From the NCBI GenBank assembly GCA_050084515.1, contig CM114271.1, forward strand, positions 36,580,001 through 36,644,000: a stretch of 64,000 bases of DNA. Direction: 5' to 3'. Made by a program: the position numbers and the translations under genes. This stretch comes from Blasia pusilla (Eukaryota). The notes under the pieces were generated by a model. That model was given only the letters and a program-made list of their open reading frames with translations, was not told where the DNA came from and did not search any database. Shown here one piece after another: positions 6,340-59,199 of the stretch (its first letter is position 1; each line of letters opens with the position of its first letter).

Positions 6340-9300
6340 AACAACATTTGCCCTAGGACCATCTCACTTTTATTTCCAACACAATATGGAAGATTATTCG
6401 ACTCATTTTGCTCGCGGGTATATTAAAAAATTGTAACTCGGGATGTAATTGAAAATCCTAACTAGGGGGGCTAACTCGCAGATCTGAACCATTGAAGTTG
6501 TGGACGGATTTACCGCAAACGGATTTGGGTCCCTCCAATTGCACCATCTTCTAAAATGATATGACATACATTTGTTAAATTTTCAGCAATAGATCTTAAC
6601 CCACTTCCCTTTCATTGTTAATTTCTCTTCGATTTGAAGCAAGCGACTTTGATTTGATGGAATAAGGCCTTCACTTGTGCCAGGTTTCACCACCATCCAA
6701 CAGTAGTACCGGTCATGGAATGATAACATTTTCATGTTATCACAATGACTCGAAATAATCTCACTCTTGACCCCTCTTTTTCTACCCTCCACACTCCACA
6801 TGCGGCCCAAAAATCATGAATTTTTTTTGAGGATGGCACCCCTAAAGTAAAAATATAGGGAAAAAGAAAAAACTTCAAATGACCACTCACACACATAACT
6901 ACAAATCGTAAACCCTAAAACCGGTCATCCATTTTTGGTTGGAGCATGGAGAGCTAATTCGCAGATCTGAACCGTTGACCATGGGGACAGATGTAAGGCC
7001 TCCTTATGTGCTAGGTTTCATCACCATCCAATGGTGAAAGCAAGAGATAACTCCATCATAACATGAAAATGCCACAAGGACTTCAAAGAATCCTACTCAA
7101 CGCCCTCTTACTCCTTCTTGGCTTGTCATTTTGTACCTTGCATCCTCCATATGGGGCCAAAAATCATGAATTTTTTTTGAAGATGGCACCCTTAACCCAA
7201 GAACAGCTGAAAAAAAGAAAAAAACATCAAATGACCACTCACACACCGAACTAAAAATTGTAAACCCTAAAACTGGTCTTCCATTTTAGGTTTGAGCATG
7301 GAGAGCTAACTTGTAGATCTGAACCATTGAAGTTGTGGAAGACATTAATGGACAGGCTCTGAAAAATATTCATTCACATCCAATGGTGGAAAACAAAGTT
7401 ACCACCATGTTACAATGAAAATGAGACAACGCCTAAGGAAAAGATTACTCAAAGTCCTCGTCCTCCTTCTTGATCCATCATTTTCTCCTCTCTTCCTCAA
7501 CCTCCTCCTCCTTAAATCTTGAAACTTTTCCCTGGGAGGCAACCCATTTTGAGGAATAGAAGCCAAAATAAAAAATTACGAATGACCACTCACACATGGT
7601 ATTAAAAACCGTAAACCCTAAATAAGGTTTCTGATTTTTGGTATTAGCATGGCAGCTTCAATAGAAGATCTGAACCGTCAAAATTCTCGAGAAATCTAAT
7701 ATCAAGGCTAGGAAAAATATTCATTCCCATCCAATGGTGGAAAGAAAAGAAACCACTATGTTACCATGAAAATAATACAACGCCTTGGAATGAAACTATT
7801 CAAAGTCCTCGTCCTCCTTCTTCATCCATCATTTTCTCCCCTCCTCCTTAACCACGAGTCCTAAAATCTTGAAACTGTTCCCAGAGGAGCAACCCAACTC
7901 TAGGAACACAGATCAAAAGAAAAAATTACAAATGACCATTCACACATGGAATTAAAAATTGTAAACCCTTAAACTGATCTTTCATTTTTGGTTTGAGCAC
8001 GGAGAGCTAACTAGCAGATCTGAACCATTCAACATGTGGAGGGATTTAAGGCCTTGGTGTGTGCGAGGTTTCATCACCATCCAATGGTGGGAGAAAAAGT
8101 AAACTTCATGACTCCAATGAAAATAACATCAGGACTCGAACATAAAAACGCCAAAAAAAACGCCTTTTCATCTCCATATTCCTTATATTTCCGCTCCATC
8201 CAACGGTGGGAAGTCAAGATGCCAGAGTGCAAACATCAAAATTGAACTAACACTTGGATCATTATTCGTGTTTTGCCTTTCTTTGTCTTTCATCTCCATT
8301 TGCGTGGCCCTCCTCTTCATCATTGTTTCTAAAAATCATGAAACTTTGTCACAAGATGTACTTATGTGTTACTATACCAATAGAAAAAGAAAATCTCCAA
8401 ATGGACACCCAAGCAGGGAATACAAAATCATAAACCCTAACTACAATTTCCCATTTTTAAATTGAGCAGGGAGTAAGATGAGGAAAATCCACATGGTCCA
8501 AAAGTAAAAGGGCCTTCTCATGTCCATATTCCTTATTTTTCAGCTCCATCCAACGGTGGGAAGTCAAGATGCAAGAATATAAACATCAAAATTTAACTAG
8601 CTCTTGGGACATTATTAATGTTTTGCCTTTATTCCTCTTTCATATCCATTTTGTTGGCACCTCTCTTCATCACCAAGTCCATAAATCCTCAAACTTTGTC
8701 ACAAGATGTACTTATGGGAGGCTATACCAATGGAAAAATAAAATATTCAAATGGACCCCCGGCTTGGGAATTAAAAATCATAAACCTTAAATAAGTTTTC
8801 CCATTTTTAAATTGCGCATAAAGTAGGATATGGAAAATACACACTGCCCAAAAGTAAAAGGGTCTTCTCATAACTATAGTCCTTATGTTTCAACTCCATC
8901 CAACGGTGGGAAGTCAAGATACTAGAGTGCAAACATCAACATTCAACTAACTCTTGGAACATTACTTGTGTTTTGCCTTTCTTTGTCTTACATTTCCATT
9001 TGCTGGGCCCTCCTCTTCATCACCATGCCTATAAATCATGAAACATTTTCACAAGATGTACTTATGTGCTACTATACCAATGAAAAAATAAAATCTTGAA
9101 ATGGACATCCAAAGAGGGAAAAAAACATCATAAATCCTAAACACGATTTCCCAATTTTAAATTGAGCATGGATAGGATATAGAAAATCCACACCGTACAA
9201 AAGTAAAAGGGCATTCTCATATCCATAGTCCTTATATTTCAGCTACATCCAACGGTGGAAAGTCAAGATGCTAGAGTGCAAACATCAAAATTAAAATAAC

Positions 9301-10346
9301 ACTTGGATCATTATTTGTGTTTTAACTTTCTTTGTCTTACATCTCCATTTGCTTGGCCCTCCTTTTGATCACCATGTCTATAAATCATGAAAAATTGTCA
9401 CAAGATGAAATTATGTGTTATTATGTCAATGGAAAAATAAAATCCTGAAATTAACGCCCGGCCACGGAATAAAAAATAAAAAAACCCTTACCGTGGTTTC
9501 GTAATTATAAATTCAGCATGGAGTAGGAAATGGAAAATCCACATCTTCCAAAAGTAAAAGGGCCTTCTCATCTCCATAGTCCTTATGTTTCAGCTCCATT
9601 CAATGGTGGGAAGTCAAGATGCTAGATTGCAAACATCAAAATTCAACTAACTCTTGGAAGATTACTTGTGTTTTGCCTTTATTCCTCTTGCATATCCATT
9701 TTGTTGGCCCTCCTCTTCATCACCAAGTCTCACCAAGTATGCCAAAAATCAATATACATTTCCTTGAGGGGCATCCCAACATCTAGAGCAAAGGGGAAAA
9801 AAGAAAAAACTCCAAATGACCACTCATACATGGATTTAAAAATCATAAATCCCAAAGGAGGTGTTTCATTTTTGGTAGGATAATGGGGAGCTAAATAGCA
9901 TATCAGAACTGTTCAAGTAGTGGAAATAATTAAGAGAAAAGTCAGTGCCACGTTTCATCACCATATTATGGTTCGATGAAAAGATAGCTACATGTTAATA
10001 TGACATACTACTCCCAACATTCGTACTCAAAGGCCTCCTCCCATTCTCTCCCCCCTCCCCTCACCAAGGGTTCTAAAAATCAAATTTTTTTTCCATAGGG
10101 GCACCCCAACACCAGGAAATAAGGGGGAAAGAAAAAACTCCGAATGACCACTCACATATGGATTTAAAAATTGTAAACGCCAAAGGAGGTGTTTCATTTT
10201 GGTAGGAGCATGGATGTTAAATAGAAGATCCAAACCGTTCAAGAAGTGCAAAAAATTAACCACGATTCTAATGCCAAGTTTGATCTCCATCTAATGGTTA
10301 GATGAAAAAATATCGCCATGTTAACATGAAAATGACACAACGGCTT
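6340..10346. repeat. Degenerate ~350-bp tandem array (about 11 units, two subtypes) inside the CACTA element
   Basis: Anchor AAATG(ACCACTCACAC/GACAC) at about 6877, 7228, 7581, 7930, 8399, 8750, 9099, 9814 and 10143. Subtype 1 carries AGATCTGAACC; subtype 2 (about 8150-9720) carries CCATCCAACGGTGGGAAGTCAAGATG. Boundaries are approximate. Confidence 0.85.
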
Positions 10347-10714
10347 TGTCATGACCGTACGGATTATGTCGTAGAGTATAGTGTGCTAGTAGAGGCCATA
10401 CCTTATGTAGGGCCGTAGTGTCCAGGTAGAGATGCGGTTTCATATATAAGATTGGGGGTTACTCAATTGAGGGTGACTTTTCCAGTAGGGTCTGCTCTTA
10501 GGTTGGAGGATATAGTGTGGAGTGCACTCAAATAACAATTAGTTCTTTGAGTTGAGCCTGTTGCGTTGAGAGTTAGCCTTGGTAGTGAGTAGAGCTCTTG
10601 GCTATGGTGGTTCCCGCAAGCTTCGACCTGGATTCTCCCATCGTGGAGTGGGTTTGGCTTGATTGTATGTGATTCTATACATGTTTTATGACATTAGATC
10701 TTTCACGGATTTCA
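10347..10714 (+). repeat. Terminal repeat A1 (368 bp) of copy 1, with TATA-like box at 10511
   Basis: Matches 19587-19954 with about 21 differences, mostly transitions. Also matches 48879-49246 and 57251-57616. Confidence 0.92.
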
Positions 10715-10726
10715 CTCAAAGAACTA
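10714..10726 (+). promoter_or_regulatory. Putative self-priming primer-binding site
   Basis: ACTCAAAGAACTA is the exact reverse complement of TAGTTCTTTGAGT at 10540-10552, about 30 nt downstream of TATAGT (10511). There is no TGG-starting tRNA PBS next to the repeat end. Confidence 0.7.
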
Positions 10727-13700
10727 GAGTAGATTGATGGTAGCTTCGATCGTGGATCAGTAGGATTTGGTTAGGATTGATTGTGTATCCAGCCGTGGAT
10801 GTTCGTGGCTTGTGGCCTATTTTGGAGATGGAAATCTGGTGCGTGGTTGTTTGGGAAAGAAGCGCCTTGCTGAGAGCTTTCCAATGCGCTTTAGATCGCC
10901 GGATTTCTTCAAGGGAGTTGGAAGTTATCAAGGATTGAAGATTCTGGTTCGTGTTCGACGGTTTGCTGATGTGGAGAACTTGGAGTGCGGAAGCTCTGTT
11001 GAAGTTCATCCAGATCGGGTGAGAGGTTCCTGTTGCTACCTGTATTGTGATCTCATGTGAAGCTATCTGCTTGAGTGTGTGGAGCGTTGCAGATTTATGT
11101 GTGCATGAATATGGGCGGAAGCGCTATCGGATTTGCGATTCTGGAGGTGTATGGACAACAAGTTTGTCTGATTTTTAGCTCGGAGTACAGATTCGGTTAT
11201 AGCTGATTTTTTGTGGAGAGATAGCTATGGTGGCCAATTGAATTTTGGTTGAAACAGATTCAATTTTGGTCAAGGATTTGTGGAGTAATTGCTGATCAAA
11301 ATTTTGCACACTAGCTCAAGGTCTGGCTATGATGGACAGCAGATCGGAGGGGCTGGTTGGTTGGAGGCTTCGAGGCAACTCGTGGTAGCTCAAGGCGCGT
11401 GGGCAAGTGGGCGTGAGAGGCGGAGTAAGGAGCAAGCAAGCAAGTTTGCTTGCTTGGGCATGAGGCAATTTTTGCAGGACTTGTGAGTTGAGTGTTACAT
11501 AATTGGTCACCCATCTTTGGGCTATTCTGCCTGGACGACGATTAACTGATGAGTTCTTAACTATGCTAGTGTACACACTGATGTACCTCATTTGGTGCTG
11601 TTTGGAGATGTGTTAGGCGCTTTATGCATCTCGGGTTTTTGGTTGATGGACCTCTAGCGCATAGTACGGTGTAGCCTCTCCATGCAGGTGATATTTTCAG
11701 GTGCTACGAGTGCGACTAGCACGTCATCGACCAGTGGCGGAGTAGCTATTGCGTTAGAATTGTGTGGTGGGTTCTATGGATTCAGGGGGCGCCATGTTTG
11801 GTGGATTGTGTTACCTTGATTTCCATTTACGATTGGAGGGTTGTCGTTGGACTTCTTGTGTTTGGATCCCCTCCATCGTTGCTTCTTGCTTGCGCGCCCA
11901 TTGTTAGGGTTGACGCTGATTTCCAGAGTAGTTTTACTCCTGTGTGCTACCGGTAGTGAGGCTAGAGTGATGACCAGTAGACCATGGGAGGCTTCTTGTG
12001 GTGATGACAGGTTAGGTTGCCTACACCCATAGCTAGTAGAGCTAGAATAGTACAGCGACATCGACGTCACTTGGTTACTTAGTGGTGGTAATTTGGTGGT
12101 GGTGCGGCATCGGCGTTGGTCATCACGGAGTTGTCTGGTGGTCTGGTTGGGGACCATGGTGTGGACAATGGTGGTTTTACATGGAGTGGATTGAGGTATC
12201 GGCTACCTTTTCCACTTCCGACGGTTGATGAAGAGGAGGACGAGGATGTTCCAAACACCGAGTCTTCTACGTTGTTATCGAGTGTTGCAACTCCATTGAT
12301 TTGGGACATGGACGGGATATATGGGGCCATGAAGGGCCCACGACGATACTCGGGTGTAGTGGGCACCATTGAGTTGGAGGACTTCATGCAGGAGTTTGAT
12401 ACGTGGTGTGATATGCAGATGTTGGGGAACGCCACGTTGTTTACACCCTTCTTGGCTTGGAAGGGGTTGTTTCAGCACTTGGAGGGACCACCCATGGATG
12501 ATTACCATGAGTTTAGGAAGGACCATGTTGCTGAGATTGAGGCGTGGAGACAATATTGGTCTCCAGGCTATGTGTCTATCATCCATGGTGGTATTGGTAG
12601 TAGTGATCCTACTATGCCAGCCAACCCGACGTTGAGTGGTACGAGTACGAGCCGGAGTGGGGGTACCAGTGGAGGTACCCATGGAGGTACCAGTGGGGGT
12701 ACTAGTGGAAGTACTAGTGCCCCACCATTGTTCATCCCGGTTGCAGAGTTCTTCAAGAGGTTGAAGAAGAACTATCAGGGATTGAAGATAGAGAAGTTGA
12801 GGAGTCTTCAGGAATTTGAGCAAAAGATTGGTGAGAGTCTTCGTGAGGCATACACTCGTATGCGACGCTTGATTTCAGTTACCCAAGGTGTGATTGAGGC
12901 TAAGGCAATCCAGTTTTGATATGGGATCTTGGACAGAGAGTTGCGCCGCAGGGTACGTGATGCTACTCTTATGAGTGATGATTCACCCACATTGACCCAT
13001 GTGTTTGCTCTATCTGAGAAGATTGAGCTTAACATGGTGGAGGAGAGAATGGCGACATCCGCATTCAGTAGGGATACAACTACTACTTCTCGTGTTCAGC
13101 AGTCCACCTCAAAGTCTCGTAGTAGTGGTGGTGGTAGTAGTAGTGGGAGTCATGGGGGGTACACACGACCTCAGTCACGTCCTAGAGGGACACTTGCCCA
13201 AAGACCATTGCCTTCATTTGCTGCCCCGCAGCAAGGACAGTCATGTTGGACATGTGGAGGTGATCATGTTAAGAGGTTTTGTCCCCAAGAGGATGGGAGA
13301 CGGACTTTGGAGGATGGTCCTCAGTCGGCCCCAACTTAGTGTGATCATTGCGGGAGACCTGGTCATCCTCAAGAGTGTTGCTTTGATCTTCATCCAGAGT
13401 TGAGATCAGGCCGTGGCCGCGGTGGAGTAGCTCCGAGAGGCCGAGGTGGTAGAGATGATAGGGGTGGTAGAAATGGATCAGTGGTTGGAGAGCCTATGGT
13501 GGCTACCCCTACCACTACAACAAAGTCAACTATGGCTGCCAGGATTGAGCAGTTGGAGCAGAAGTTGGCTACTATGGTTGGTATCTAGCATAGAGCAGAT
13601 TCGGGAGCAGGGGCTTCCACCTCTTATGGAGGGAATGATCTCTCTTATATGGCGAGTGCAGCACAGGTTGAGGCATCAGCTGCAGTTACGAGAGGAGCCA

Positions 13701-14984
13701 CTCGAGCGTCAGAGCCACGTGGTGCTATTGTGGAGTTGGACCCGCAAAGGGGTGAGGCTGGGAGGCAGGCTAGGCTTCCCCAATCATTCTTGTTGTCTGA
13801 GGTGCTTAGGACTCCATCCATGGTTCCTAGGCAGCCTGTTGAGCCTACAATGGGGACTGAGGCATCTACATCGCGTGTAGTAGACACGAATGCAGCATCC
13901 AATGCAGTATTGCGGATGGAAACTTCAGTGTTGGGATCCCCATTATTTTCGGCCACGGAGCTGATGGCTTTAGGAGTTGACTTAGCTCATGTATTTCAGC
14001 TAGCAGCCACGTTGTGTGAACGTGGGGGTGTTACTGCTACACGTGCTGAGGTGGATGAGGGTGTTGCGGTGGAGTGACCCTCTATGTCAGGTGTAGCATT
14101 GAGTACTAGTGCTACTTAGCAGGCAGCAACGGCGAAGATGGATGCATTACCAGCCCGGCCAGCCATTGATCGTGAGAGGCTTACACCTGGTGTATGTATG
14201 TTGGACAACCGGAGTGGGATATTCCGATTGGTGAGTCCTACAGGACAGGTGTATAGACTAGATAGAGTCTAGTGCCCAACTTTTGATGTTGGGAAAGGCG
14301 GCATGTATTGGTTTGGGTATTCGGAGGTCAGAGCTTGAGCCTTGCCCATTCCAGATTCAAACATCACTTGGAGGAGCCAATGATAGGTCTCAATTCATGA
14401 CACGGGAGAAGTTGTCTGTACACTTGAGACCAGATCATGCAACTGATAGCTCACGGTTGGGAGTACCTACAGTGGTCACATCAGCCGAGTCGTATGATGT
14501 ACTAGTTGGAGGAGCAGTATTATACCTGATGGGTTTTCAGATGGACTACTGGACCGAGACAACGTCATATAGACCTGGTTGGCAGTCCGGGGATGGACGT
14601 ATGAGCGAGGTTCATGTGAGATTTATTTATGGGGCTCGACCAAGAGGGTCTACCCCAAAGGTGTTAGCATCTGTGGCTGGTTTTAGTGGAGTAGTCATTT
14701 GGCCAGGAGACTTTTTGGAGGGTAATCTTTTTGCTATGGATTCTCGTGTGCATGAGGAGGTCCCTAGTTTTGCAGTTGTGGCATCCTCATCGTTGGATGT
14801 GCCACTTTGGAGTTCAGGCGGTGCACTACGGCAGGAGGCTGATCGCCTAGTGCAGGAGGCTTGGTGTGAGGCTCTTATACCTCACGAGGAAGAAGAGATC
14901 CCACAATGGACTCCTACTTCTGGTCTAGTTGGGTTATCCCCTTTGGATAGTACACCCATTGTATGACAGTATCCGCCGGAGGGC

Positions 14985-15910
14985 ATTTGTGTGTTAGATC
15001 TCTTTGGTGGGATTAGCACTGGTTTGCCTCCAGTGTTGCAGGCCGGTATTCTTGTGCGGAGATACGTGTATGTGGAGCGAGATGAGATGGCCTAGAGAGT
15101 CTCATCCCGACATATTGGTCAGTTGATGCGGAGATATCTTGAGATGTTGTCGCCATCAACTATTCGTGGGTACCAACGTGCTTTGTCGTCACACATTGCA
15201 TTGTTGGGGGCACAAGACCTTGAGAGGGTTGGTCGTGTGGATTTGGTGATTTCTGGATGGCCATGTCAGGGTCATACACGTGCTGGTCGTGGTGAGGGTT
15301 TACACGACCCTAGGTCTCGATTGTTTTGGGAGATGTTACGGGTGTTACGACATCTTCAGGTTCATCAAGCACGTGCTCCAGCTTACATTCTGGAGAATGT
15401 TCCATTGTTAGGTGACACTCGGACCCGGATGATGGCGAGTGTTTATGAGGTGCGGTCTTGGATTGGACCAGCGGTATTGTTGGATGTAGCGCGAGTTGGC
15501 TCGCGTGCACATTGTCCACGCTTGTGGTGGACAAACTTGTTGCCTACGGAGGTTCTATGTTGAGCATATGATGCAATACATCGGGATCCTTGCCTTACAG
15601 TGGATAATATCTTGGATACTGGGCGACTTTCTCAGGTGGTGAGGGTTATTGATTGGTCACCCATGGTAGTGGTGAACCATGTGGGCTAGTCTAGGATGGC
15701 ACTACCCATATTTGTGAGTTTTCCCTCGTCACATGCCTACAGGGAAGGTGGTCCCGAGCTTGTATGGGATTCTTATGTGTGACAATTGGTGGAACCTAAC
15801 ACTAATGAGAGAGAGCCTGCAATGGGATTTGCTACTCGTGTGACAGCGGTTGCTTCCATTTCTGAGGCTTCACGACGTCATGTGTTGGGTCAGGCCATGG
15901 ACCTGAATTT
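14985..15910 (+). pseudogene. DNMT3-like C5 cytosine methyltransferase domain in copy 1
   Basis: Motif I VLDLFGGIST, II YVERD, IV GWPCQG (15255-15272), V DPRSRLF, VI ILENV, VIII AHCPRLWWTNL, IX ExExAMGF, X VLGQAMD, in canonical I-X order. Confidence 0.9.
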
Positions 15911-18900
15911 TTTTACCTGGATTTTGAATCTTGGGATGGCCGAGCACCGTTGACTTCAGACTATGTCTATGGGTCTTCCACCCCTTGTGATGAGCTCGAT
16001 GGCTACCAGGATGGTAGAGACATCGGATGGGGGCGAGGAGAATAGTATTTTGCATCCTTGGAGTAAATGGGATGTAATCGCTGGGCATGTGGAGTTGGTT
16101 GCTCATGCTGGTGGAGGTGTTATTTGCTCAAATGATGGTGTAGCTAAGGGTGTACCATCTTGTGAGGGGGTTGCCTAGCAGCCAATGGCGTCGTCCTCTC
16201 CCTCTAGTGTGCCAGTGGAGGAGACTTGGGAGCCATTACTTGGGCCCAAGCTTAGGGGAGGTGAGAAATGACGCTTGACACAATTCCTACGTGCTTATAG
16301 GAGTTGTTTTGCCTTTAGCATGAAGGAGTTTGGTGCTTTGGTTGGACCCGGTATACGGATTGATTTGGCCAATCTTCCGTCGTCCCTACCGATATAGTGA
16401 TATGGAGAGGGACCTGATTCAGAGTAGGACGTTGGACCTTTTGGAGGGTGGATTAGTGGAGTTTTCGCATGGAGAGTATGCATCAGCCACTGTCATGCTT
16501 GCTAAAAAGGATGTGCATGGCAACTACACGGATAGGCGGATGTGTGGAGATTACCGTCTTATCAATCGGCAGCCCAAGGCCGATAGGTATGCTATGCCTA
16601 CACCTGAGGAGATCTTTGATGTGGTGGGACATGCAAAGATTTTCAGTACTTTGGATCTTCGGGTAGGATACCATCAGTTTCCGATTCGAGAGAGTGACAA
16701 GGCCAAGACAACATTTTGGGGTGCCAACTCTCATGGCAAGGATTGTTTGTACCAGTGGAAATTCTTACCCTTTGGGTTAAAGAATGCACCTGCTGAGTTT
16801 CAGAGAGTGATGGATAGGATCCTAGCAGGGTTGGATTTTGTTCGGTGTTACATTGATGATATCTTGGTGTTCAGTAATACGGTGGAGGAGCATCAGATAC
16901 ATTTGTAGATTGTGTTTGAGCGGTTGAAAGCTCATGGTCTACGTTTGCATCCCGGAAAGTGTAAGTTCTTCCATGAGGATGTTGAGTACTTGGGTCATGT
17001 GATCTATCCAGGTGGTTTGGGAGTTCAGCAAGCAAAGGTGGAGGCTATTGCACTTATTCCTCGTCCGGTAGATATGAGTAGAGTTCGGCCATTCATGGGA
17101 TTGGCGAACTGCTATCGGAGGTATGTGAAGGGATTTAGTGCTAGGGCAAAGCCTTTGAACTTATTTCTGAAATCAGATCACGAATGGAACTGGGGAGATG
17201 ATCAAGAGAGAGCTTTTTTGGAGCTCAAGGCCCAGTTGGTGACGGCGCCTATCTTGAGGAGACCTATCAGAGGGCACCCATTTCAGTTACACACTGATTG
17301 GAGTAGGTTGTGACTTGGAGCGGTGTTGACACAACATGATGATGAGCACATGGAGTTTGTGGTGGCCTATGCAAGTCGTACGAATAATGCAGGGGAGTCG
17401 CGCTATAGTTCATATGAGGGAGAGTGCTTGGCAGTTGTGTGGGCTGTGGCACACTTTAGGTGTTACTTGTTTGGCACACAATTTACCCTTGTTACTGATC
17501 ACCAGCCGCTCAAGTGGTTGATGGAGTCTGACAAGCTTACATGGAAGCTTGCATGGTGGGCTCTTATCTTACATGAGTATCACTTCCAGGTGGTACATAG
17601 ACCTAGAGTTTCCAACCTTGATGTTGATGGGTTGAGTAGGAACCCATGTACAAGCCATGAGGATGCAACTGGGGCTAGATGGCATGGCGAGGTTGATGAG
17701 GAGATGGTGTCAGTTTGGCATGCATCCGCCTTTTTATGTTGGTTAGGGGTGAACTCTAGTATGGAGGACCACATGACATCTTACTCTAGTCGGAGGATAG
17801 ATGGCCAACCTTCAGATCCTAAGGTTGGAGATGGTGGTACGGATTAGCATGATATTCATGATGATGCGTTGGTGTTGGAGTTCCTACGGACCAGTAGGGT
17901 GCCAGGCATAGTGAGTGCCAAGGAGCGAGATCGTGTTCTTCAACGTGCTAAGAGGTATCAATTGGAGAAACACATATTCTCCGTGTGTGGGAGGATGGTT
18001 GAGTACGAGTAGTGCCGCATTTGGCTCAGAGAGAGCCCATTGTGCGACATGCCCATGAGGAGTTGGGATATTTTGGGGTAAAGGATACGTATAGCTTACT
18101 CCTTGGTCAGTATTGGTGGCGTGGCATGCATACTCAGGTGCAGTAGTTGGTGTCACGTTGTATGGTTTGTGACCGTATGAGGGCATCATTCAATGTCCCT
18201 ACACCACTGTTACATCCCTTGCCTATTATGGGGTTGGATTACTGTTGGAGTGTGGACTTTGTGGGACCATTACCGTTGACTGTACGACATCATCAATATG
18301 TGTTGGTGATGGTGGAGGACTTCTCCAAGTGGATTGAGTTGGTGGCATTACCTGACAAGGCAAGTGACGGAACGGCGTATGCGTTTCTTGATAGAGTCCT
18401 TAGTCATTTTGGTGCACCAGCTGAAGTGCTGACCAACCAGGGTACAGAGTTTCAGGGTGAGTTTCAGGTCTTGTGTGACAAGGCGTTGATTGATCATCCG
18501 ACCACGTCTCAAGATCATCCAGAGGTGGATGATTTGGCGGAGCGTGTGGTTCAGACGGTGAAGAGGGCATTGGGCAAGTATGGCCTACAGAAGGGGCATC
18601 TTGGAGACTGGGATATTCAATTGCCATGGTTAGCCATGGGATATAGGTTCAGTCGCCAAGCATCCTTGGCTTCCTTCTCACCTTATTTTTTGTTATACGG
18701 CCGAGATCCAGACTTGCCAGCAGCAATTTGTGGAGAGTCTAGTGAGGTGGTGAACCTTGATGACCCTGAGATGTGGATGAGAGTGTGTTCTCAACGGGCA
18801 CAGCTCTTCCGGAGAGTTATGCCAATAGCCTTTGAGAATCTTGCCATTGCTCAACACAGGGATACGTTGCAGTATGCAACCATTCGGGGTGGAGATTATC

Positions 18901-19156
18901 GACCATCGATCCGTAGGTTCCATGTGGGGGGTTGGACTATGCTTATTTGCATTAGATTGCTCCGACAATGTTGGATGTGACGGCAAGCCGCACTATTTTA
19001 CGAGTGTGCGAGGTGTTAGCTTCTGGAGTTCTCATGTTGGAGAGTCGTGATGGAGTTATTTGGAAGGACCATGTGCGTAATTATGCCGCATGTCATCTTC
19101 CAAATGTGGATGATACTGTTGACCCAAGCTTAGCCATGATACGTGCTAGCTTGAGG

Positions 19157-19291
19157 TGCATGTTATGTGGGTCTGCTGGTAACGCAACCACTATGTTGAT
19201 GTGTGATCGGTGTTCTAGGGGTTGGCACATGATGTGTTTGACTGCACGTATGGATGTTGTTCCTACTGGAAGGTGGGTTTTTCCTCGATGT
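19157..19291 (+). other. C-terminal PHD finger after the integrase (copy 1)
   Basis: CMLC...CDRC...WHMMC...W-x-(C>F)-PRC. Copy 2 (56834-56968) has the intact C4HC3 pattern. Confidence 0.88.
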
Positions 19292-19460
19292 ACTTAGGAG
19301 AGGTAGATGACTTGATCTTTGCATGATATGGATTACAGATGTGCGACTAACGATGGGGCAACCTAGCACCCGACCTTCTGATTCGTGCACCCACGAAGGT
19401 GTATAGCATGTAGTAGATGTATAGGGCTACCTGGGAGTTAGAGGGACCTAACCGCCAGTT

Positions 19461-20060
19461 AGGGGGGCGAGTTGTGGTACTTTTTTCTTTGTGGATGCTC
19501 TCGTCTATGTTATGTATGTATGTATGTATGTGAGTATGGTATGTCAACGATGTATGTTGTATGACGATGTGGATTTGCACGACATCTGTCATGACCATAC
19601 GGATTATGTCGTAGAGTATAGTGTGCTAGTAGAGGCCATACCTTATGTAGGGCCGTAGTGTCTAGGTAGAGATGCGGTTTTATACATAGGGTTGGGGGTT
19701 ACTCAGTTGAGGATGACTTTTCTAGTAGGGCCCGCTCTTAGGTTGGAGGATATAGTGTGGAGTGCACTCAAAGAACAGTTAGTTCTTTGCGTTGAGCCTG
19801 TTGCGTTGGGAGTTAGCCTTGGTAGTGAGTAGAGCTCTTGGCTATGGTGGTTCCCGCAAGCTTCAACCTGGATTCTCCCATCGTGGAGTGGGTTTGGCTC
19901 GATTGTATGTGATTCTATACGTGTTTTATGACTCTAGGTCTTTCACGGATTTCAGTTGTGGTACACTTGTGTTTGTGGATGCTCTCATCTATGTTATGTA
20001 TGTATGTGAGTATGGTATGTGAGCGATGTATGTTGTATGACGATGTGGATTTGCACGGCA
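19461..20060 (+). repeat. PPT plus 3' repeat block of copy 1: B1 (19473-19584), A2 (19587-19954), B2 (19957-20060)
   Basis: AGGGGGGCGA-GT-TGTGGTAC...GCACGACA-TC-TGTCATGACC...GATTTCA-GT-TGTGGTAC...GCACGGCA. Confidence 0.92.
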
Positions 20061-20109
20061 GCTTTGAATAATCCCTACCAACATTAGAGCATTAAATCAT
20101 TTAAACATA

Positions 20110-20326: not shown

Positions 20327-21356
20327 GATCCTCCAAAATCCAAAATCCAAACTCCATCTATAACCTAAACCCATGATCGAAAGTGGATGCAACTGTGGAG
20401 TCGGAGCATTGAACGATGCTCGAACTCGAACTCGATCACACATCATACACTTGGCAACAAACTGCTGAACGTTAGTCTGCATGCCTGTCCACCAATACTA
20501 TATCTGGAGCAAGGTGTAAGTCCGCTTCACTCCAAAATGACCCAACTCCTTGTAGGCATGACGCACCAAATGTGCTCTCTTCGAAGGACGAGGCACCACA
20601 CACACTCTACCATCCTCACAAACTCGCAATACATGTGTCCCCTCCCACCGGAACTGTCTGGCTTGTTGTAGGATCCCGCTCTCTAGCACCCACTGTACTC
20701 GTGACGATGCCTATACGCAGGTACTCCAAGACCACTCCATTGTCGTGAATGTCTCAGCCACCTGTCGTCTCCTCATCGACCTCTGGATCTAAGGACTCTC
20801 CATCAGACCTTGCCATCAAAGTCTCAGCAATCTGGCTCTCCATAGCCAAAAAGCCCAAATAGGCTGAGTGCCATCATGGCACCAACTCCTCATCACTCTC
20901 ACCATGCCAACAAGCTCCAGTCGTATCTCGTTGACTCGAGCATGGATTACAGCTCAAACCATCTGCATCTTGGTTGAGCGTCGTAGGTCTATGCACCACC
21001 TAGAAGTCATACTCTTGCAACAAAGAGCCCACCTTGCAAGCTTCCTTGTAAGCTTGTGGGACTCCATCAACCACTTAAGTGGCTGATGATCAGTAATGAT
21101 GGTAAAGGGATTGCCGAATAAATAACACCTAAAATATATGACAACCCACACCGCAACCAAGCACTCACCCTCATACAAGCTATGCTTTGCCTCTAGAGCA
21201 TTGTTCGAGTGACTAGCGTAAGCCATCATGAACTCTCTACCATCATCATCATGCTGGGTGAGCACGGCTCCAAGCCCCAACATGCTCCAATCGGTATGCA
21301 ACTGGAAAGGACGCCCCCTGATCAAGCTCCTCAATAAGGGCATGGACGTCAATATG

Positions 21357-22583
21357 TGTGATACCCACAATTTTGTACTTTTGAAGAATATATCTTTTTA
21401 TTCAACGAAGACTCTTGTACATTATGAATATGATTATGATTATTTATTATTATGAGGAGGAATGAGTAAGATTAAAGTGAATCACAAAGCTCCTAGGACA
21501 AGGCAAAGAGATGGAAGATCAAGGATTTGCCTTAGAGGAGAGGGAAATGCTATAACGAAGTCTAAAGAACCAACGCAAAGCTTGGAAAAGACAACGAAGC
21601 ACTGTTAAGAACTTTTTTATGAAGTGCTTTGCTCTTGAACGAAGCATGAAGAGGAAGAGAAAGAAGTACTTCACTCTCGTACGAAGCGCGAAGCACGAAG
21701 CACCTGAAACAAGAACGAAGCAGAGAGTGCTTCATCCTCAAGAAGTCTAGCGAAGCGAAGCTAAGAATGACAGTGATTTCGAGTGACACACCATTAGAAC
21801 AATTAGACTAGGAAAGGGCGCGACCCTTTGTATCAGATAGATAGTTAGGATTGTTTTGTTCTGCGGATTCACAAGGATCGTAGGAAAAGCTAAGAGAACC
21901 ATATATCTAGGTAGTTAGAAATGGTGAAGAGACACTAGCTTCATCAAGAACGCTTCGAATCTTTGGATCACTCCTACTCCAGCGAGTATTTAAGAAGCAA
22001 GACAGAAGCCATAATCATCATTCTCTTACAAAGTCCTTATGCTGTAGGAATGGTCCAAGCAAGGGAGTAGTACCCTCTGGAGCTTGTATACACTTTGAAG
22101 CTTTCTCATTCTTGATGGAGTAGTAAAGCAATCATTCATTCATTCTGATGTGCGATGCTTATGTCTGAGTATTCCTTTTGGGTCTGCAGAGTGAAGAGTG
22201 AATCAGGCAAACCTTTCTCATCAATGAAATAATCAACATGAGCTGTAGGAAATCTGTTTGACAGAGAGTAGCCTGACGAGACGGATTGAATTCAAAAAGT
22301 AGGAAAAGCCAGTTTTCATGTTGAGGTCTCTGTGAGGTTTCTTGATATTGAGAGGAAATCTACCTGAGCATGCTATCAATTCCACTAGAGAGAATCAAGA
22401 AAAGATCCTTTGGTACTAAGAAAGATCAGCAGATATTGATAAGACATTGAATATAACTCATACACATTTTAACACAACTATTACAACAAAATTGTAATTT
22501 TGAATTCTCTTTCATCAAACAATGATCCTCTTGGGGATCGACCTTATTAAACGACTGTAAAATAGAAACTCTTGTACATTACA
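21357..22583. mobile_element. Solo LTR (1227 bp), unassigned family, 5-bp TSD ATATG
   Basis: TGTGAT...ATTACA termini. ATATG at 21352-21356 and 22584-22588. Removal restores the LKDILTSMP reading in the host element. Confidence 0.88.
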
Positions 22584-23849
22584 ATATGTCCTTGAGCAAC
22601 TAAAATTCTCTCTCATGCTCATCCTCCCAGTGCCACTCGTGATCCACCTTGGTCAGCAAGGTTAGCGGTTTCGCAATCAAATTGAAACCCTTGACGTACC
22701 GTCGATAGAAGTTTGCCAATCCCATGAATGCACGAACTTGACTCACATCTGTAGGGCGTGGAATATGTGAAATAGCCTCTACCTTTGTCTGCTACACACC
22801 AACGCACCTTGGGTATATCCTATGATCCAAGTTCTCAATCTGGTCGTAGAAGAACTTGCACTTGCTTGGATGTAGCTTCAGCCCATGTAACTGAAATCCT
22901 CAAAACACCTCCTCTAGATGTCGCTCATGCTCCTCAATCGTGGCGCTAAAGACTACAATGTCATCAATATAACACCTAGCAAAATCTAGACTTGCCAAGA
23001 TCCTATCCATGACCCTTTGAAACTCAGCTGGGGCATTCTTTAACCCGAATGGTAAGAATTGCCACTAGTACAAACAATCCTTCCCGAAGGATTGATGCCC
23101 CAAAATGTTGTCTTGTGCCTGTCCTCCAATCTGATAAGCAGCTAATGATATTCGGTTCAAAGATCTAACAAATTGAAGTCCTTTACATGCCCAATAGCAT
23201 CAAAGATCTCCTCAGGAGTGGGCATGGCATACCTATCAGACTTAATAGGTCAATAATCTCCACACATCCGCCTATCCGTCCAGTTGCCATGCACATCCTT
23301 CTTGGGGGGCATGACAGTGGCAGATGCAAACTCTCCATGTGACATCTCCACTAGTCGTGCTCCAACCAAGTCCTGGATCCTACTCTGAATCAGAACCCTC
23401 TTCATGTCACTATACCTATAGAATCATCGAAAGATCGGGGTGTCACTCGACAACTCAATGCGGATGCTTGGATCCTTCAGCGTACCCAAATTCTGCATGC
23501 TAAATGCAAAAAAACTCCTATAACTCCTAAGGAACTAGTGTATTTTGCGCTGCTCTCCTCTTGTCAACTTAGGGCCCATATCTGGCTCCCAAGTCTCCAT
23601 CGTGACTACGATAGGACTCTTCAGTGTAGGTGTAGGTGGTTACTATGGTGCAACCCCATCTCGGACAACATAACTCTTATCTCCACTTGCAGTACCCGAA
23701 ACCACGCTCGATGTTGTGGCTACCATGTCCTGGCGTACCTGCAAAACATCCCAAGAAGTCCAAGGGTGCACCAACGCAACAACTATGATCTGACGCATCC
23801 TCAAATGACGCTGATTAGCTACGCCTAAGCTAAAAATCCATGTCAAGTA

Positions 23850-24765
23850 GTTTAGGTCCATTTCCTGACCCAAGTCATGACATCGTGATGCCTCTGATAG
23901 TGACGGTATTGTTGTCACTCATGTGGGGAATCCCATCGCTTGGTCTCGCTCATCGGCGTTGGGCTCCACCAACCTCTGTACCTGGTCATCCCAAACCAAA
24001 CTAAGTCCGGCCTCCTTGAATGGATAGGAAACAAGAAAACTCATCAATGTGGGAAAGGTTGCACGTGGCATGCCAATCCTATTGATCATAGTCAATCATC
24101 ATGCCTTAGTGCGTGTGAGCGAAGACTTGGATCCAAAATAGAATCCACCAACAAATCGGAGGGGTGCTCCACTCTCACATAAGCCCTTTGCAAAACCTCA
24201 TGTGGGACCAAGTTGGTCCACCAAAGATATGGGGGGTGTGCTCTAGAACCTACACTCGCCGCATCCAAAAACACTGCTAGGCCAATCCACGCCCGCACCT
24301 GATGTGCACTCGTTACAACGCGGGACCTTGAACCCCCAAAATCGGCACATTCTCACGAATGTATGCTGAAGAACAAGAGTGATGCTCTTGCAAGTGTCGC
24401 AAAATCTGCATCATCTCCCAAAACAATTTGGAACGAGTGTCACCTAACCCGCTACCTCGTCTAGCACTCGATTGGCCCTCACACCGCCAACCAACAATGA
24501 CAAAATCTATGGCCCCTACCCGCTCCAAGTCCTGCGCCCCCAGCAATGAAATATCCTATGGTAGGGAACTCTAGTATCCCTCGATAGCAGACGTAGACAA
24601 CAAGTCGAAAAAACGGAGGTGTAATTGCACAGCATGGTGAAGTGAAGCACGTCTCGCAACATCATCAATCTCCACATATAGGTATTGCTGCACGCGTACT
24701 CTTGTATGAAAAAAACAGCTAACCGGATGTTGATCCCTGCAAAGAGATCCAACACCCGAATACCC
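23850..24765 (-). pseudogene. DNMT3-like methyltransferase domain (subfamily 2)
   Basis: IRVLDLFAGI, YVEID, VGWRCEG (motif IV with P>R), RSKLFWEM, IRENV, AHPPYLWWTNL, LGQEMDL. Confidence 0.85.
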
Positions 24766-27565
24766 TCCTCTTGGATACACCACACAATTAGGGTGGTGTC
24801 CAAAGGGGTCATAGCAGCACTCCTAGCTACCTAGGGTTCCTCTGACTCGTCACACTCTGGTGCAAACATCTCGCTCCATGCGGTCTGCACATGCTCAATG
24901 GCTAAGCGTCGAAGCTCCTCAATCGAGCCCCAAAGTGGCACCTCTCCTCCACTACCTGATCGGCTAGCATGACACTCCTCTCCATAGAAATATAAGAAAC
25001 GGGAGTATCCTTTGCATGGAAATGTCCCTCAATCAAATCACTAGGCCAAGTGATTGCACTGCTAAATGCTGCTAAGATCGCCATCTCTCCTAGACGTCGC
25101 TCGATCACTGCACTTGTGAGTCGAACGAGTAATGAGCTCCTCGTCTGTAGGACGCTGACTCCTCCAAGTAATCCAGGGGAAATCCCATCGGGTATAACAC
25201 TGCTCCACCAACCAAGACGTCGTAGGGCTCTGCATCAGTCACTATCGTCTTGGCTCGCACCACGGACTCACCTATAGGATGTCCCGAGCGAATCCTCACC
25301 ACAACCTCCTATCGGGGGATATATTGGGTGATACTCGCTCCACCCAAGGATGGCTATATCCGGAATGGACAATGCTCCACATCGACTCTTGTCAAACCCA
25401 ATCCTCTGAATGACGCTTTCCCCAACATCAAGGGTTGCGCTCTTGAATCCAACAAGATGCGCTGCGGACTAAAAGCTCTACCTTCTAGACTCACCAACTG
25501 GAAGACCTCTCACCGGTTATTCAACAACACAACACCAGGAGAAGCCATGGCATGCTCTATCGGGAGTCTAGCCAGAATCTCCGCCATCCTAGCACCCACA
25601 GCCTGCCATGAATCTGACGTGGAAGGTCTTAGCATCCCCTCCAAGGACAGGTCCATCACCTCCTCTACAATCACCCCTAAACGTGATGCAGGAACTCCAA
25701 CTCTACGCTCACACAGTGTAGCGGCCAGACGGAAAACCTCGGAGGGTGTACCTCCCAATGTCATAACATTGCAAGCAAAAAATAAAGAAGCGCGGACACA
25801 ACGGTGGCCGCCTCCAACAACGTGCTTGACACGTGATCCTCTTGAGCATCAGCAATAGGAGTCTTTGCACTCGCTTCTCCCATTGCCCTTCGTGCCTGCA
25901 CACCAACAACATCACCAACTCTCCGGGAACTATGATTAGGATCCATTGATGGGGTCCTCGTCGCCTCGGACAACGTGAAGGACTGAGGAAGCTTGGTTTG
26001 TTTCTTGGCTTCTCCTCGTTGTGGATCCAACTCTACGACTACTCCACACGTAACAACTGCGGAAGCCTCCATATGGGCAACCCCGCACATCCAACCACGA
26101 TCCTCCATATCTCTACCGGCTCCATAAAACGTCGATGCCACCGACGAATAACCTCAATGCCATAGCGGCAATTTGATGTTGTAGTTGCTATATCTGAACA
26201 GCCATCCCAGCCTCACGCTCAATGTCTCCCTTGACGCATCTAGGTGGTGGGACTCTACCTCCTCCTCCGACAGCTCCACCACCCTGTCGGGAAACTCTAG
26301 CTCCTTGTCTCCCAACGGAACCACCTGGTGCACGTCCTCTAGGCCCACCCAGACTAGCAACTCCCTATAGTGCCCTCTCTGGCCCTCAATCAGGACGTAA
26401 CTCAGGGTGTAAACTGAAACACCTAGCGCATGTGTGACCATCCCTCTGACAATTTTCATAATAATAACCTCTTGGTGCAGCACCATATCCTCCTCCATGC
26501 TGAGACACACGTCCAAGACCTTGACAAATGCAATCACGCTGATGATGGGCTCCACCACATGACCAACAAGTAATCGTAGGCGGTTGCTGTTGAGCCGCAT
26601 ATAAAGGCATAGGTCTCTGTGGCACGGCCTTTGGGTATCCTCCCTGCGCTTGCGGTGCCACAGTCGACCTATCTTGGAGTCCACATTGCTGCACTGGTGG
26701 TGCAGGCAATCGTGACTGCTCTTGCCCATAATCCATGGTGGCTACGCTCTCCTCCGCCATGTTGTGCTCAATGTTCTTGGCGGTTCTTAAAATATCTCTC
26801 AACGTAGGGGAGGTGTTCATAAGAAGCACCCCTCCTGCACCCGTGTCCGTAGGGTTCAGTCCAGCATCGCGTACCATGACTGGATAGCCTGAGCCTCTAT
26901 CACCCCCTGAGTGACGTTGATCAACCGGTGTAAGCAAGTGTAAGCCTCACGCAAACTCTCAACCGGGCGCCTTTGGAAGTCATGGATGCTCCGCAACTTC
27001 TCCGTCCGTACCCCTTGGTAGCTTGCCCTCAACTTAGCAAAGAACTCAACCACTGGGTTGAACTTGGGACAAACTTGACTAGACGGTGCATCTGCTCCAA
27101 TGCGAGGCACCCCTTCTAAAACATCACTAGTAGAAGAAGAAGTAGCCTCTCTTGATTCCTCTTCCTTATCTGAGAACGGCTCTGTCCACGACACATAGTG
27201 TGGGTCATAGTAGAGTCGCCATGCCTCAATCTCCTGGGCATATCTATGGGAGAACTCATGGTAATTGTCCATGGGTGCCCCCTCTAAATGCTGGAACATA
27301 TCATTCCATGCTGTAAACGGGTTGAACTCTCTGGAGTTCCTAGCCCGTTGTGAGTCACACCAACTCCTAAACTTGGCAATGAAGTCGTGTAGCTCTATAG
27401 TGCCTACAGCACCCGAAAACCTAGGCGATCCTCTACCCCGGTCATCCATCTCGTACGCCCAACTAGTAGGACCACTCAATATGTACGGTGGATCACTAAC
27501 ACATTCCTCTATATGCTCCCCCTTGTCTGAAGAAGACACAGAAGGAGATCGAGGTGATCTCTCAC

Positions 27566-33500: not shown

Positions 33501-34860
33501 GATCTTACTTGTGGCCACATAAGTAAACTTAGTGACGCGCCTAAGTCGAATCGAGAGCGACCCAATAGTAGTGCGATTTGTGGACCAGGTAAACAGGTGT
33601 GATGTTTCTGAGAATGAGTCGAAAGAGTCTAAGGTTGCACACTTAGTTAGCTTATTTGATAGGTTAGTTCCTTGGAACTAGTCCAGGCTTATCGAAGATG
33701 AGAGGCTAATAATTCTAAGTGGGGCAAAGCGACAACTAGAGACTAAGAGGAATTGCGGGTTAGCCACGTAAGCGCAATTCAATGTCAAGGGTAGGCTGCC
33801 AGGAGACTTGACATAATAAAAGTTTGCGTTGCTGAGGGCATCAACCTCTAAAAGAGAGGTGAGTGTCGTGACCCTCATGACCAAACAAGTGCCAAGCGGA
33901 ACATCGGAACATTAGCGGGCTCACGCTAAGATGGTTTGCGCGTTGGAGTTGTCTCAAAGAGGAGACAAGAGACGAGACGCGAGCGAGAAGTCGCGTTTCA
34001 GATGTGATGGTCACAACTCAGAAACCTGGACCAAACGCGGAATGAGACTTGAAAGAAGTCGAGTCTAGGAAGTGGGTTGCCAAAGGAAAGATCCGGATTT
34101 GGAACGCCACTTGCGTTTGAGAGTTTCTGACTGTATTTCTAGCCATAACTTTTAGCGCCGAGATGCGTTTGGAGCAAATAAGGGTGCGTTGGAAATCTTA
34201 TAGAGAGCTGGTCAAAACGCACTAAAGATCGCTGCAAACGCATAAGCACCGGCCGAGATACAACCCGAAAACGACTGTAAGTGGAGTCGGGTTGAGGGCC
34301 ACAATGAAGGGCCCGAACCTCTTTTCCCAAAGGGGAGGGGTTATTGGAGAACCCCAGAAGTACTAGTAAGGGGGAAGGTCTCCGAGAGTGCTTGGAACCC
34401 AAACCCCACTTTGGGCGCCGCAGGGCGGCTCAAGGGCATGGAACGGAACGCGAGTTTGGGCGTTGGGTTGGAAAACCTGCACCAAGTCCATTGAGGCGAT
34501 TTTAGACATCCCTCTTGGATTTCACGACTCAATTACTTGGGTCTCGGTTCGGAACTCACACGAGGAGCGTTGAACAGTTGGGATCGCTAGGCGTGCAAGT
34601 GTCGTTTCAGATCCCTAGACTAACCAGGAAGTCTGTTCCAAGTCTTGAAGGACTTGCCATGTGTTGGGAGCTAGGAACTAAGGAAGGTTGAGCTTGACGA
34701 GATGCCGAGTTTAGGACTCGGTGGGTTGGAACGCCGGTTGGCCAAACCCGACTAATGAGAGTGCGTGTTTGGGTGCAGATCGGCGATGAGTTCGTGACCT
34801 ATTGAACGCACGCTTCCGCAACACTAAAGATTGACGTTCAAGGAGAGTAGGGGCGCGACA
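27566..34860 (+). mobile_element. Ty3/Gypsy chromovirus (Galadriel-like), full length, 5-bp TSD CTCAC
   Basis: LTRs 27566-28566 and 33864-34860 (TG...CA, about 4 substitutions and 2 indels). PBS TGGTATCAGAGC (tRNA-iMet) at 28569-28580; PPT at 33850-33863. TSD at 27561-27565 and 34861-34865. The clade call rests on motif similarity only. Confidence 0.93.
28820..33180 (+). pseudogene. Chromovirus gag-pol with C-terminal chromodomain, many frameshifts
   Basis: Zn knuckle CYKRGESGH, PR LLVDT, RT YPLPRIDDLF...YIDDILI, RNase H HTDASDFA...HEKELFAVVH, integrase SIVSDRDPKF, GPY motif and HPTFHVSLLK, chromodomain EFMVETIL...YLVKWKGY...ATW (about 32990-33120). Confidence 0.9.
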
Positions 34861-58824: not shown

Positions 58825-59199
58825 TCTTGTTTTATCTTTTTCAACTAGTGATCTAATTATCTATGTTTCAAACTTACTAGTAGTAATCCATGGGATGCAC
58901 GATGGGTAATTCAAATTTATCCATTATTATATTAATTGACCCATTTCGATCTAGACCTCAAATTTAACTGACTCCATAATTGATTATAAATTTATTGAAA
59001 ACACTCATGGAGATATGATTGGTGGCTAAAATGTCGAATAGAAAGTTGGTTTGAAAGTCAAAAAGGAACTCTCTCATACAGATATAGATTTTCGCTCGCA
59101 TGTAAATATTCCTGAACGAGAAAGTCTCATATATACACGGTTCCAATTCCTTTTCCCAAAGTAAAATTCAACGAAACGGTGTGAGCACGTATTGAAATT

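Follow-up and report, generated by a model that had tools for sequence, protein, structure and literature searches.

Elements with long terminal repeats (LTRs) integrate, in the textbook account, from the tips of a linear complementary DNA (cDNA), and circular forms are held to be dead ends. The question raised by the present locus is how a Ty3/Gypsy element came to carry the repeat order A-internal region-B-A-B, with insertion ends that do not coincide with the unit that reverse transcription should copy. The element (copy 1) occupies positions 10347-20060 of a 64,000-nucleotide (nt) stretch of the Blasia pusilla genome (GenBank assembly GCA_050084515.1, contig CM114271.1, positions 36,580,001 to 36,644,000 of the forward strand), which was analyzed at full length and is referred to below as the window. 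Working from sequence data, we tentatively propose that two machineries acting out of register, reverse transcription and a DDE integrase, define the ends of this element, and that its A...BAB form could arise when the cDNA tips are joined, most simply in a 2-LTR circle, and the product is cut at an internal palindrome.

Copy 1 consists of A1, an internal region, a polypurine tract (PPT), B1, A2, and B2, its 3' part reading AGGGGGGCGAG-T-B1-TC-A2-GT-B2. The two A repeats are 368 nt each and share 94.3% identity, and the B repeats are ~86% identical with an indel within a TATG run. A direct repeat of GCTT lies immediately outside A1 and B2 as a 4-bp target-site duplication. The outer ends of the element are TGTCATG...CACGGCA, and the same pair of ends adjoins across 2 nt at the junction of B1 with A2 (CACGACA-TC-TGTCATG), termed J1 below; the joint of A2 with B2 is termed J2. 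The insertion site is a satellite with a period of ~350 bp, and the two flanks minus one GCTT align collinearly through the join with a paralogous monomer at ~7014-7101, indicating that the A...BAB structure was inserted as a single unit. An earlier note on this DNA, made from the letters alone, had described the A...BAB layout with GCTT outside A1 and B2; this description was borne out and recurs in independent metagenome copies. The satellite itself forms two adjoining tandem arrays of ~350-bp period within 6775-10346 (6775-8126 and 8156-9730, with 82-86% identity between units), and copy 1 is inserted at the edge of such an array.

An alignment of the integrase C-terminus and the adjacent PHD finger served as the query for further copies of the family in metagenome contigs: 229 stretches matched a pattern, and 55 loci were confirmed at 47-89% protein identity. 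B-like sequence is present in 43 of the 55 loci, and most of the remaining 12 do not reach the 3' region or have diverged too far. At 18 sites the PPT-B sequence passes directly into the flank, which defines a second common form, A...B, that the earlier note had not foreseen. Another 11 sites end in A-B against the flank, comprising nine with the full B-A-B, one from a divergent subfamily (L028), and one with an upstream deletion (L031). One 3' end is aberrant (L001), and two more sites show B-J1-A with no visible end. When copy 1 is included, 30 of the 31 visible 3' ends lie at the end of B (..CA(C/T)(G/A)A(C/T)A), the remaining one (L001) lies at the start of an inverted A, and none stops at the end of A. 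At each of the eight visible 5' ends the element opens with T(G/A)TCATGA, and no B precedes it. The target-site duplications are perfect 4-mers at five of the six two-ended sites (GCTT, CATA, and TCTC for A...BAB copies; TGTT and ATGT for A...B copies), and the sixth, an internally deleted A...B copy, agrees in three of four letters (GGTT/TGTT). The obtained ends are in agreement with two predictions of the earlier note, namely that other copies would have TGTCATG...CACGACA termini with 4-bp duplications and that no insertions bounded by TGTGG...TTTCA would be seen.

In an assembly check of these contigs, 15 contigs from different samples, in six same-site groups, agreed in form; the L038/L040 pair is unexplained. 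The two contigs (L038:1-3171 and L040:38-2752) share 99.4% identity from the upstream flank across a 5'-truncated element as far as B1 and the spacer AC; past the J1 spacer, L038 runs into A2, B2, and flank, and L040 runs into unrelated sequence. The split reflects a structural variant with its breakpoint exactly at J1, or else a contig that is chimeric. In L002 (3130-3150), A1 has shrunk to TGTCATTTTCA by a deletion from the TGTCAT with which A starts to a second TGTCAT close to its end, and the duplication ATGT is intact despite this loss. Two independent sites (L007:~1590 and L020:~2870, the latter being the same site as L051) contain, within B, insertions of other elements whose ends begin with GTCGCAACCCCAC, which resembles the LTR start of the element E3 described below. 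Viral contigs scanned for J1 gave no match.

The borders relevant to reverse transcription differ from these insertion ends. The PPT adjoins B1 at 32 sites, and the sequence 3' of A1, ACTCAAAGAACT(A), forms a putative 12- to 13-nt primer-binding site (PBS) complementary to TAGTTCTTTGAGT inside A. A TATA-like box in A precedes the complementary motif by 30 nt, and the metagenome copies carry GTATAAAG at the same spacing. Since the PBS adjoins A and the PPT adjoins B, the reverse-transcription repeat should be B+A, and the unit bordered by these two sites is permuted relative to the insertion termini. The opposite assignment, an LTR composed of A+B with a 5' deletion of B, was rejected because no PPT precedes A and no PBS follows B. 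A record of this process may be preserved in the aberrant locus L001 (1169-1800), in which PPT-B-A-PBS is followed by an inverted A that runs from the self-primer motif to the first base of A, the latter being the element end against the flank. The fold-back joint lies exactly at the complementarity between the PBS and the self-primer, suggesting that L001 is a fossil of a plus-strand strong-stop DNA (B-A-PBS) that snapped back and was cut at an inverted J1.

The J1 palindrome is a constant feature of the family. Its spacer measures 2 nt at 15 of 15 sites (GC at six, AC at three, AT at three, GT at two, and TC at one), and all of these spacers except TC form a C-to-T/G-to-A decay series of the palindrome CAGCTG. 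This series led us to reject a hypervariable spacer copied from donor flanks in the style of insertion sequence (IS) circles, for which TC in copy 1 and GT in copy 2 had been considered. The arms of J1 are kept in the divergent subfamily with different A and B sequences (L028), as well as in L049 (47% protein identity), where the PPT is followed by a 41-nt B and CGCGACA-GC-TGTCAGG. They also resemble the LTR ends of E3, TGTCGCGACC...GCGCGACA, so that J1 looks like a conventional repeat-to-repeat joint, although this is a weak argument given that E3 is a distant element.

The second joint behaves differently. The usual J2 sequence is ...TTTTC followed by AGT-TGTGG, and the PPT region likewise ends in AGT. 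Of 12 comparable sites, 4 depart from this J2 length: one additional PPT-derived letter (GAGT) is present in L007 and L038, CGAGT and a short duplication occur in L018, and ~27 nt of B2 are missing from L047. The added letters, GA or CGA, match the 3' end of the PPT. Length variation was found at 0 of 15 J1 sites and at 1 of 32 junctions of the PPT with B1, making J2 more variable than J1 (Fisher p = 0.03) and than J1 and the PPT-B1 junction combined (Fisher p = 0.006; approximating table, 4/8 vs 1/44). J2 thus appears to behave as a pair of joined cDNA tips with imprecise primer removal, which fits a joint that every cycle forms afresh instead of inheriting it from the parent, and the earlier note's reading of the A2-B2 sequence as cDNA ends joined to each other gained support from this variation. 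The A repeats lead in the same direction. On a tree of 8 A1 and 14 A2 sequences, from which same-site duplicates were mostly left out, the A1 and A2 labels need seven changes compared with a shuffled mean of 6.7, and A1 and A2 are not separate lineages; such mixing is expected if both are remade in each cycle.

The coding content identifies copy 1 as a Gypsy element. A Pfam scan matched DNA_methylase (15096-15560), RVT_1, RT_RNaseH, and rve, in addition to a weak gag match, and the rve match agrees with the Ty3/Gypsy affiliation and DDE integrase named in the earlier note. No tyrosine recombinase (Phage_integrase) was matched in 29 open reading frames (ORFs) and proteins, including the minus-strand ORFs of copy 1, at E-values up to 0.01-0.1, in line with the earlier expectation that a Pfam scan would exclude one. 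Matches to the PHD finger came from the copy 2 homologue and from the better-preserved L039, which has it in one ORF with rve. The domain order RVT_1-RT_RNaseH-rve, the aspartyl protease upstream in the homologue P0041, the TGTCATG...CACGACA termini, and the short (4-bp) target-site duplication are those of Ty3/Gypsy elements, but two identical terminal LTRs are lacking, the ends being A on the 5' side and B-A-B on the 3' side. The split direct repeats A1-int-B1-A2-B2 are those of the order DIRS; here, however, the integrase is of the DDE type instead of a tyrosine recombinase, and 4-bp target-site duplications are present. Homologues of the methylase segment form part of long bryophyte polyproteins (Marchantia polymorpha, Calypogeia fissa, and Sphagnum species), and the Marchantia protein P0009 combines the methylase with reverse transcriptase (RT) and RNase H. 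The position of the C5 methylase in Pol, between the protease-like region and RT, together with the A-coding-B-A-B repeats, places copy 1, as a bryophyte representative, in the streptophyte Gypsy lineage that bears a methylase (Gypsy-DNMT3), and this shared architecture suggests a link by descent to the elements of the alga Klebsormidium nitens.

The proposed cycle would proceed as follows. Reverse transcription would be self-primed at the PBS that borders the A end and would use the PPT that borders the B start, giving a B-J1-A repeat and a linear BA...BA cDNA, whose tips, AGTTGTGG...TTTTC, would be poor substrates for the integrase. Joining of these tips, most simply in a 2-LTR circle, would create J2 (TTTTC followed by AGTTGTGG). 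The integrase would then act on the J1 palindrome CACGACA-NN-TGTCATG inside the upstream repeat, and a cut after CA on both strands would yield recessed CA-3'OH ends with 2-nt overhangs. Insertion of these ends into a target cut with a 4-bp stagger would produce A-int-B-A-B, a circular permutation of the two-repeat cDNA. Only this form can give a full-length RNA, because the downstream A supplies the 3' R. The A...B form may derive from 1-LTR circles, from two J1 cuts in linear DNA, or from later recombination between B1 and B2. A later B1/B2 deletion would make A...B copies older; end-branch lengths did not differ (medians 0.0615 and 0.056; Mann-Whitney p = 0.69), although this test is weak. 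RNA reads from two runs (X21 and X22, raw) cover the whole element in the sense orientation, including the PPT-B-A sequence and the joint of A with the PBS; the reads with at least 99% identity were 10 of 5031 and 4 of 4910, and almost all reads come from other copies of the family.

Several observations weigh against the proposed cycle. No circle, unintegrated cDNA, or integrase activity was observed, and reads cannot tell circles from integrated copies because all 1-LTR and 2-LTR junctions also exist in integrated form. The permutation ABA...B, which a 2-LTR circle should also yield and which the earlier note had considered possible, is absent among the eight visible 5' ends. The A...B copies outnumber the A...BAB copies and cluster on the tree (five changes compared with 8.8 expected, a value as low being reached in 1-2 of 500 shuffles, with one clade of seven); such clustering is outside the predictions of the model, and A...B copies could propagate by a route that it does not give. 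The self-priming suggested by the 13-nt complementarity, the spacing from the TATA box, and the L001 joint has to be set against the sole pile-up of RNA starts, at 19748 (30 molecules, X21 only), which is 32 nt upstream of the predicted start. Finally, every copy seen is degenerate, the assignment of loci to sites was made by eye on the first 14-24 flank bases, and some A...B ends in these short-read metagenome assemblies could be repeat collapses, against which stands the agreement in form of the 15 contigs that cover six sites.

The same palindrome could also be used with no circle involved. An RT jump from the U5 end to the U3 start, or head-to-tail ligation of cDNA molecules, would give linear BA-int-BA-BA, from which two J1 cuts would release A-int-B or A-int-B-A-B. 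This route accommodates L001, in which J1 seems to have been cut in a non-circular snap-back molecule, and the prevalence of A...B at 18 sites, a form for which cutting ordinary linear BA...BA cDNA twice would suffice; template jumping accounts for the PPT-derived letters at J2 as well as ligation does. However, linear cDNA with tandem repeats is not known from this family, whereas 2-LTR circles with LTR-LTR junctions are described as ordinary by-products of plant LTR elements (PMC9324142). We consider the linear tandem route rather unlikely, yet for the origin of J2 it is not separable from the circle on the basis of these sequences. The circular intermediate suggested in the earlier note is plausible and consistent with the A...BAB anatomy, but a linear tandem cDNA cut internally would fit the same data.

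Three further explanations were considered. Following the Ngaro and PAT-like elements, a transcript would run from inside A1 to inside B2, the cDNA ends would be completed and bridged on the B1-A2 sequence into a circle, and the DDE integrase, replacing a tyrosine recombinase, would open the joint of B2 with A1. The A1-int-B1-A2-B2 order is indeed the split-direct-repeat layout of DIRS elements (PMC8969392, PMC7192593), and the repeats of the related algal element KnitGypsy-Dnmt3 have been called DIRS-like (de Mendoza et al., 2018; PMC5890265). This scheme, however, would leave no role for a PPT at the exact start of B1 and a PBS at the exact end of A1; A1 and A2 are not inherited as the separate lineages that it implies, J2 would be copied from the parent so that PPT-derived variation is unexpected, and L001 preserves a B-A-PBS strong-stop product. 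We regard it as improbable. Transposition at the DNA level, in which the integrase would cut or copy out A...BAB at its TGTCATG/CACGACA ends with no RNA step, could account for short inverted repeats with 4-bp duplications, and abutted-end circles are used by elements of the IS3 family. It would nevertheless require A1 and A2 to diverge within lineages and J2 to pass on unchanged, contrary to what was found, and the PPT, PBS, RT, and RNase H are conserved and a full-length sense RNA is present, making this explanation very improbable. An accidental origin would involve an ordinary Gypsy copy, BA...BA or AB...AB, that became rearranged once inserted or was assembled wrongly, with GCTT matching by chance, and might be entertained in view of the old and degenerate state of both window copies. 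We regard it as already refuted, since the layout recurs together with its termini and 4-bp duplications at sites independent of one another, among them sites of other species and of the divergent subfamily, and the satellite paralogues show a precise insertion.

The layout has a precedent, although the earlier note knew of no description in Ty3/Gypsy elements. The legend to Figure 4c of de Mendoza et al. (2018, Nat Commun 9:1341, PMC5890265) attributes Gypsy domains and DIRS-type repeats to KnitGypsy-Dnmt3 of K. nitens, which shares with copy 1 the Gypsy domain set, a Dnmt3-type C5 methylase in Pol, and the A-coding-B-A-B repeats; a streptophyte 'Gypsy-DNMT3' is also mentioned in passing in a 2026 preprint (bioRxiv 10.64898/2026.05.21.726589). 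In copy 1 the methylase lies between protease and RT, and the host is a land plant, in contrast to the alga, with the nearest protein homologues in Marchantia, Calypogeia, and Sphagnum. The main-text parts of the KnitGypsy-Dnmt3 account give no termini, target-site duplication, PBS or PPT, or mechanism, and no account of how such an element integrates was found in the literature searched; the papers listed there on split direct repeats were, by title, reviews or work on tyrosine-recombinase elements. The odd repeat layout of the lineage is already in print, and what is new here is evidence on its origin, namely integrase ends that lie within the RT repeat, a joint between the tips that varies, the 4-bp duplications, and the frequent A...B form.

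The split-direct-repeat layout is typical of tyrosine-recombinase elements such as Ngaro and PAT-like elements (PMC8969392, PMC7192593), and TOC1 is a non-autonomous DIRS element (PMC9940879). Ngaro, PAT-like, TOC1, and TOC3 elements have the A1-internal-B1-A2-B2 layout in common with copy 1, but elements of this order use a tyrosine recombinase and produce no target-site duplications (PMC8969392), whereas copy 1 encodes a DDE integrase, ends in TG...CA within 4-bp duplications, and has its repeats bordered by a PPT and a PBS. A parallel to J1 is the retroviral 2-LTR junction, a CA..TG palindrome of abutted ends whose cutting by a retroviral-type integrase converts a circle into an integrable linear form, as reported for foamy virus (PMC1180852) and for HIV-1 in vitro (PMC1905944), and also treated in PMC4372172. 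In retroviruses this palindrome is the joint of U5 with U3, and the product is a normal LTR-int-LTR provirus; in copy 1 it lies inside U3, ~112 nt from the U3 start, the product is permuted, and the route would be obligatory and not a salvage pathway. Self-priming is known from Tf1/Sushi elements and has been predicted for the plant Tcn1 clade (PMC6317226); as in these, the PBS of copy 1 would be complementary to the 5' region of its own RNA and not to a tRNA, self-priming being predicted here from the 13-nt complementarity, TATA spacing, and L001. The abutted ends of J1 also resemble those of IS3- and IS30-type elements, from which copy 1 differs by its reverse transcription. In those DNA elements, which transpose without reverse transcription, a DDE enzyme acts on two inverted ends lying a few bases apart in a circular intermediate.

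The positions of all features in the window are collected below.

Features of copy 1, copy 2, and their relatives in the 64,000-nt window of Blasia pusilla
Feature	Positions	Strand	Basis
Left GCTT target-site duplication, copy 1	10343-10346	+	Rebuilt empty site matches satellite monomer
A1, start TGTCATGACC = integrase-type left end; holds 3' part of U3, R, and U5	10347-10714	+	Repeat comparison
TATA-like ATATAG (10510-10515) and, 30 nt on, TAGTTCTTTGAGT (10540-10552), predicted RNA 5' end and self-primer	10510-10552	+	Predicted from sequence
PBS-like ACTCAAAGAACTA, 13 nt complementary to 10540-10552	10714-10726	+	Conserved in L008, L013, L018, and L034
gag, zinc knuckles, broken by stops	12092-13585	+	Retrotrans_gag weak, E 0.005
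Protease-like region	14262-14963	+	No Pfam match here; homologous position in P0041 is an aspartyl protease
C5 cytosine DNA methylase, PCQ and ENV motifs; C-terminal motifs at 15783-15950	15096-15950	+	PF00145, E 6.6e-10
Reverse transcriptase and RNase H	16324-17844	+	RVT_1, RT_RNaseH
DDE integrase core, then C-terminal PHD finger	18147-19294	+	rve, E 2e-12; PHD from relatives
PPT AGGGGGGCGAG, adjoins B1	19461-19471	+	Conserved at 32 sites
B1 (TGTGGTAC...GCACGACA), 5' part of U3; last bases = integrase-type right end	19473-19584	+	Repeat comparison
J1, palindromic junction CACGACA-TC-TGTCATG, proposed integrase cutting site	19578-19593	+	2-nt spacer at 15/15 sites
A2	19587-19954	+	Repeat comparison
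J2, joint of A2 with B2, TTTCA-GT-TGTGG, read as U5 end and U3 start	19950-19964	+	Length varies among copies
B2, right terminus GCACGGCA	19957-20060	+	Repeat comparison
Right GCTT target-site duplication, copy 1	20061-20064	+	Sequence
R2, distant relative (67-72% nt), methylase included in same gene order	20341-27434	-	Cut off in integrase; E3 interrupts 5' side
R1, distant relative, same gene order, rearranged by inverted duplications	38067-44960	+	Comparison
Copy 2	48879-57709	+	A1' 48879-49246, B1' 57145-57248, GT, A2' 57251-57616, GT, B2' 57619-57709

Copy 2 repeats the order of copy 1 within flanks unrelated to those of copy 1, and to that extent it has the same layout as stated in the earlier note; a complete B2 and a duplication, however, were not recovered, since B2' lacks its last ~13 nt and the target-site duplication is unreadable as a result. 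Approximately 400 bp of its methylase region are deleted. Both window copies are old and degenerate, with repeats 93-94% identical and many stops, and stops and frameshifts occur in all copies within the window. A 100-bp direct repeat (47711-47811 and 58817-58919, 90% identical) lies ~1.1 kb to each side of copy 2, which may therefore be nested inside another repeat. The termini of R1 and R2 were sought in the window and none was recovered, so the repeat layout of these relatives is not informative. In R1, a protease-like region is duplicated in inverted orientation just past the PHD finger (39998-40420 and 44976-45396, 77-84% complementary), and a second small inverted repeat is present at 38049-38216.

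The element E3 (27566-34860), nested in the 5' part of R2, is a young conventional Gypsy-type element with 1-kb LTRs that are 99% identical, a 5-bp duplication (CTCAC), the PPT AAAAGAGAGGTGAG, and the PBS TGGTATCAGAGC, which we take to be of the plant initiator-methionine tRNA type. A third LTR of this type, 69% identical, is located at 45824-46847. E3 was rejected as a close relative of copy 1, given identities of 35% in RT and 29% in the integrase, which are those of a distant Gypsy element. Among the RNA reads, 15 (X21) and 22 (X22) join 17812 to 18820 with nine other letters between and with ends that are not GT..AG, a joint that marks a family variant expressed without the integrase core. 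Another 4 (X21) and 10 (X22) reads join A position 318 back to position 30 (19616-19904; back 289); this joint is absent among the joints listed for the DNA runs and may be a partial tandem duplication of A in some copies. The read joints 19469 to 19954 and 20026 to 19558 were rejected as deletions, being mapping ambiguities between B1 and B2.

The genomic copies of this family are not derivable from the tips of a linear cDNA, since the reverse-transcription repeat (B+A) and the integrase ends are mutually permuted, and the joint of the cDNA tips is preserved within every replicating copy. It is possible, though the case falls somewhat short of a probable one, that the integrase site shifted from the cDNA tips to an LTR-internal palindrome in an old Gypsy lineage extending from streptophyte algae to bryophytes, making tip joining and the internal cut obligatory in each cycle. 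If this is true, the family would represent a third mode of integration among LTR-type retroelements, between classical end-processing and the circle recombination of the DIRS type, and a DIRS-like repeat layout could arise without a tyrosine recombinase. Annotation tools for transposable elements that expect two identical terminal repeats would then mis-call this abundant, transcribed bryophyte family, the A...B form included. Circles were once proposed as the precursor of retroviral integration, an idea that was later abandoned. The family would provide a natural case of such circle-junction integration, in which a retroviral-type integrase naturally uses an internal palindrome, and it offers a natural system for testing this old question.

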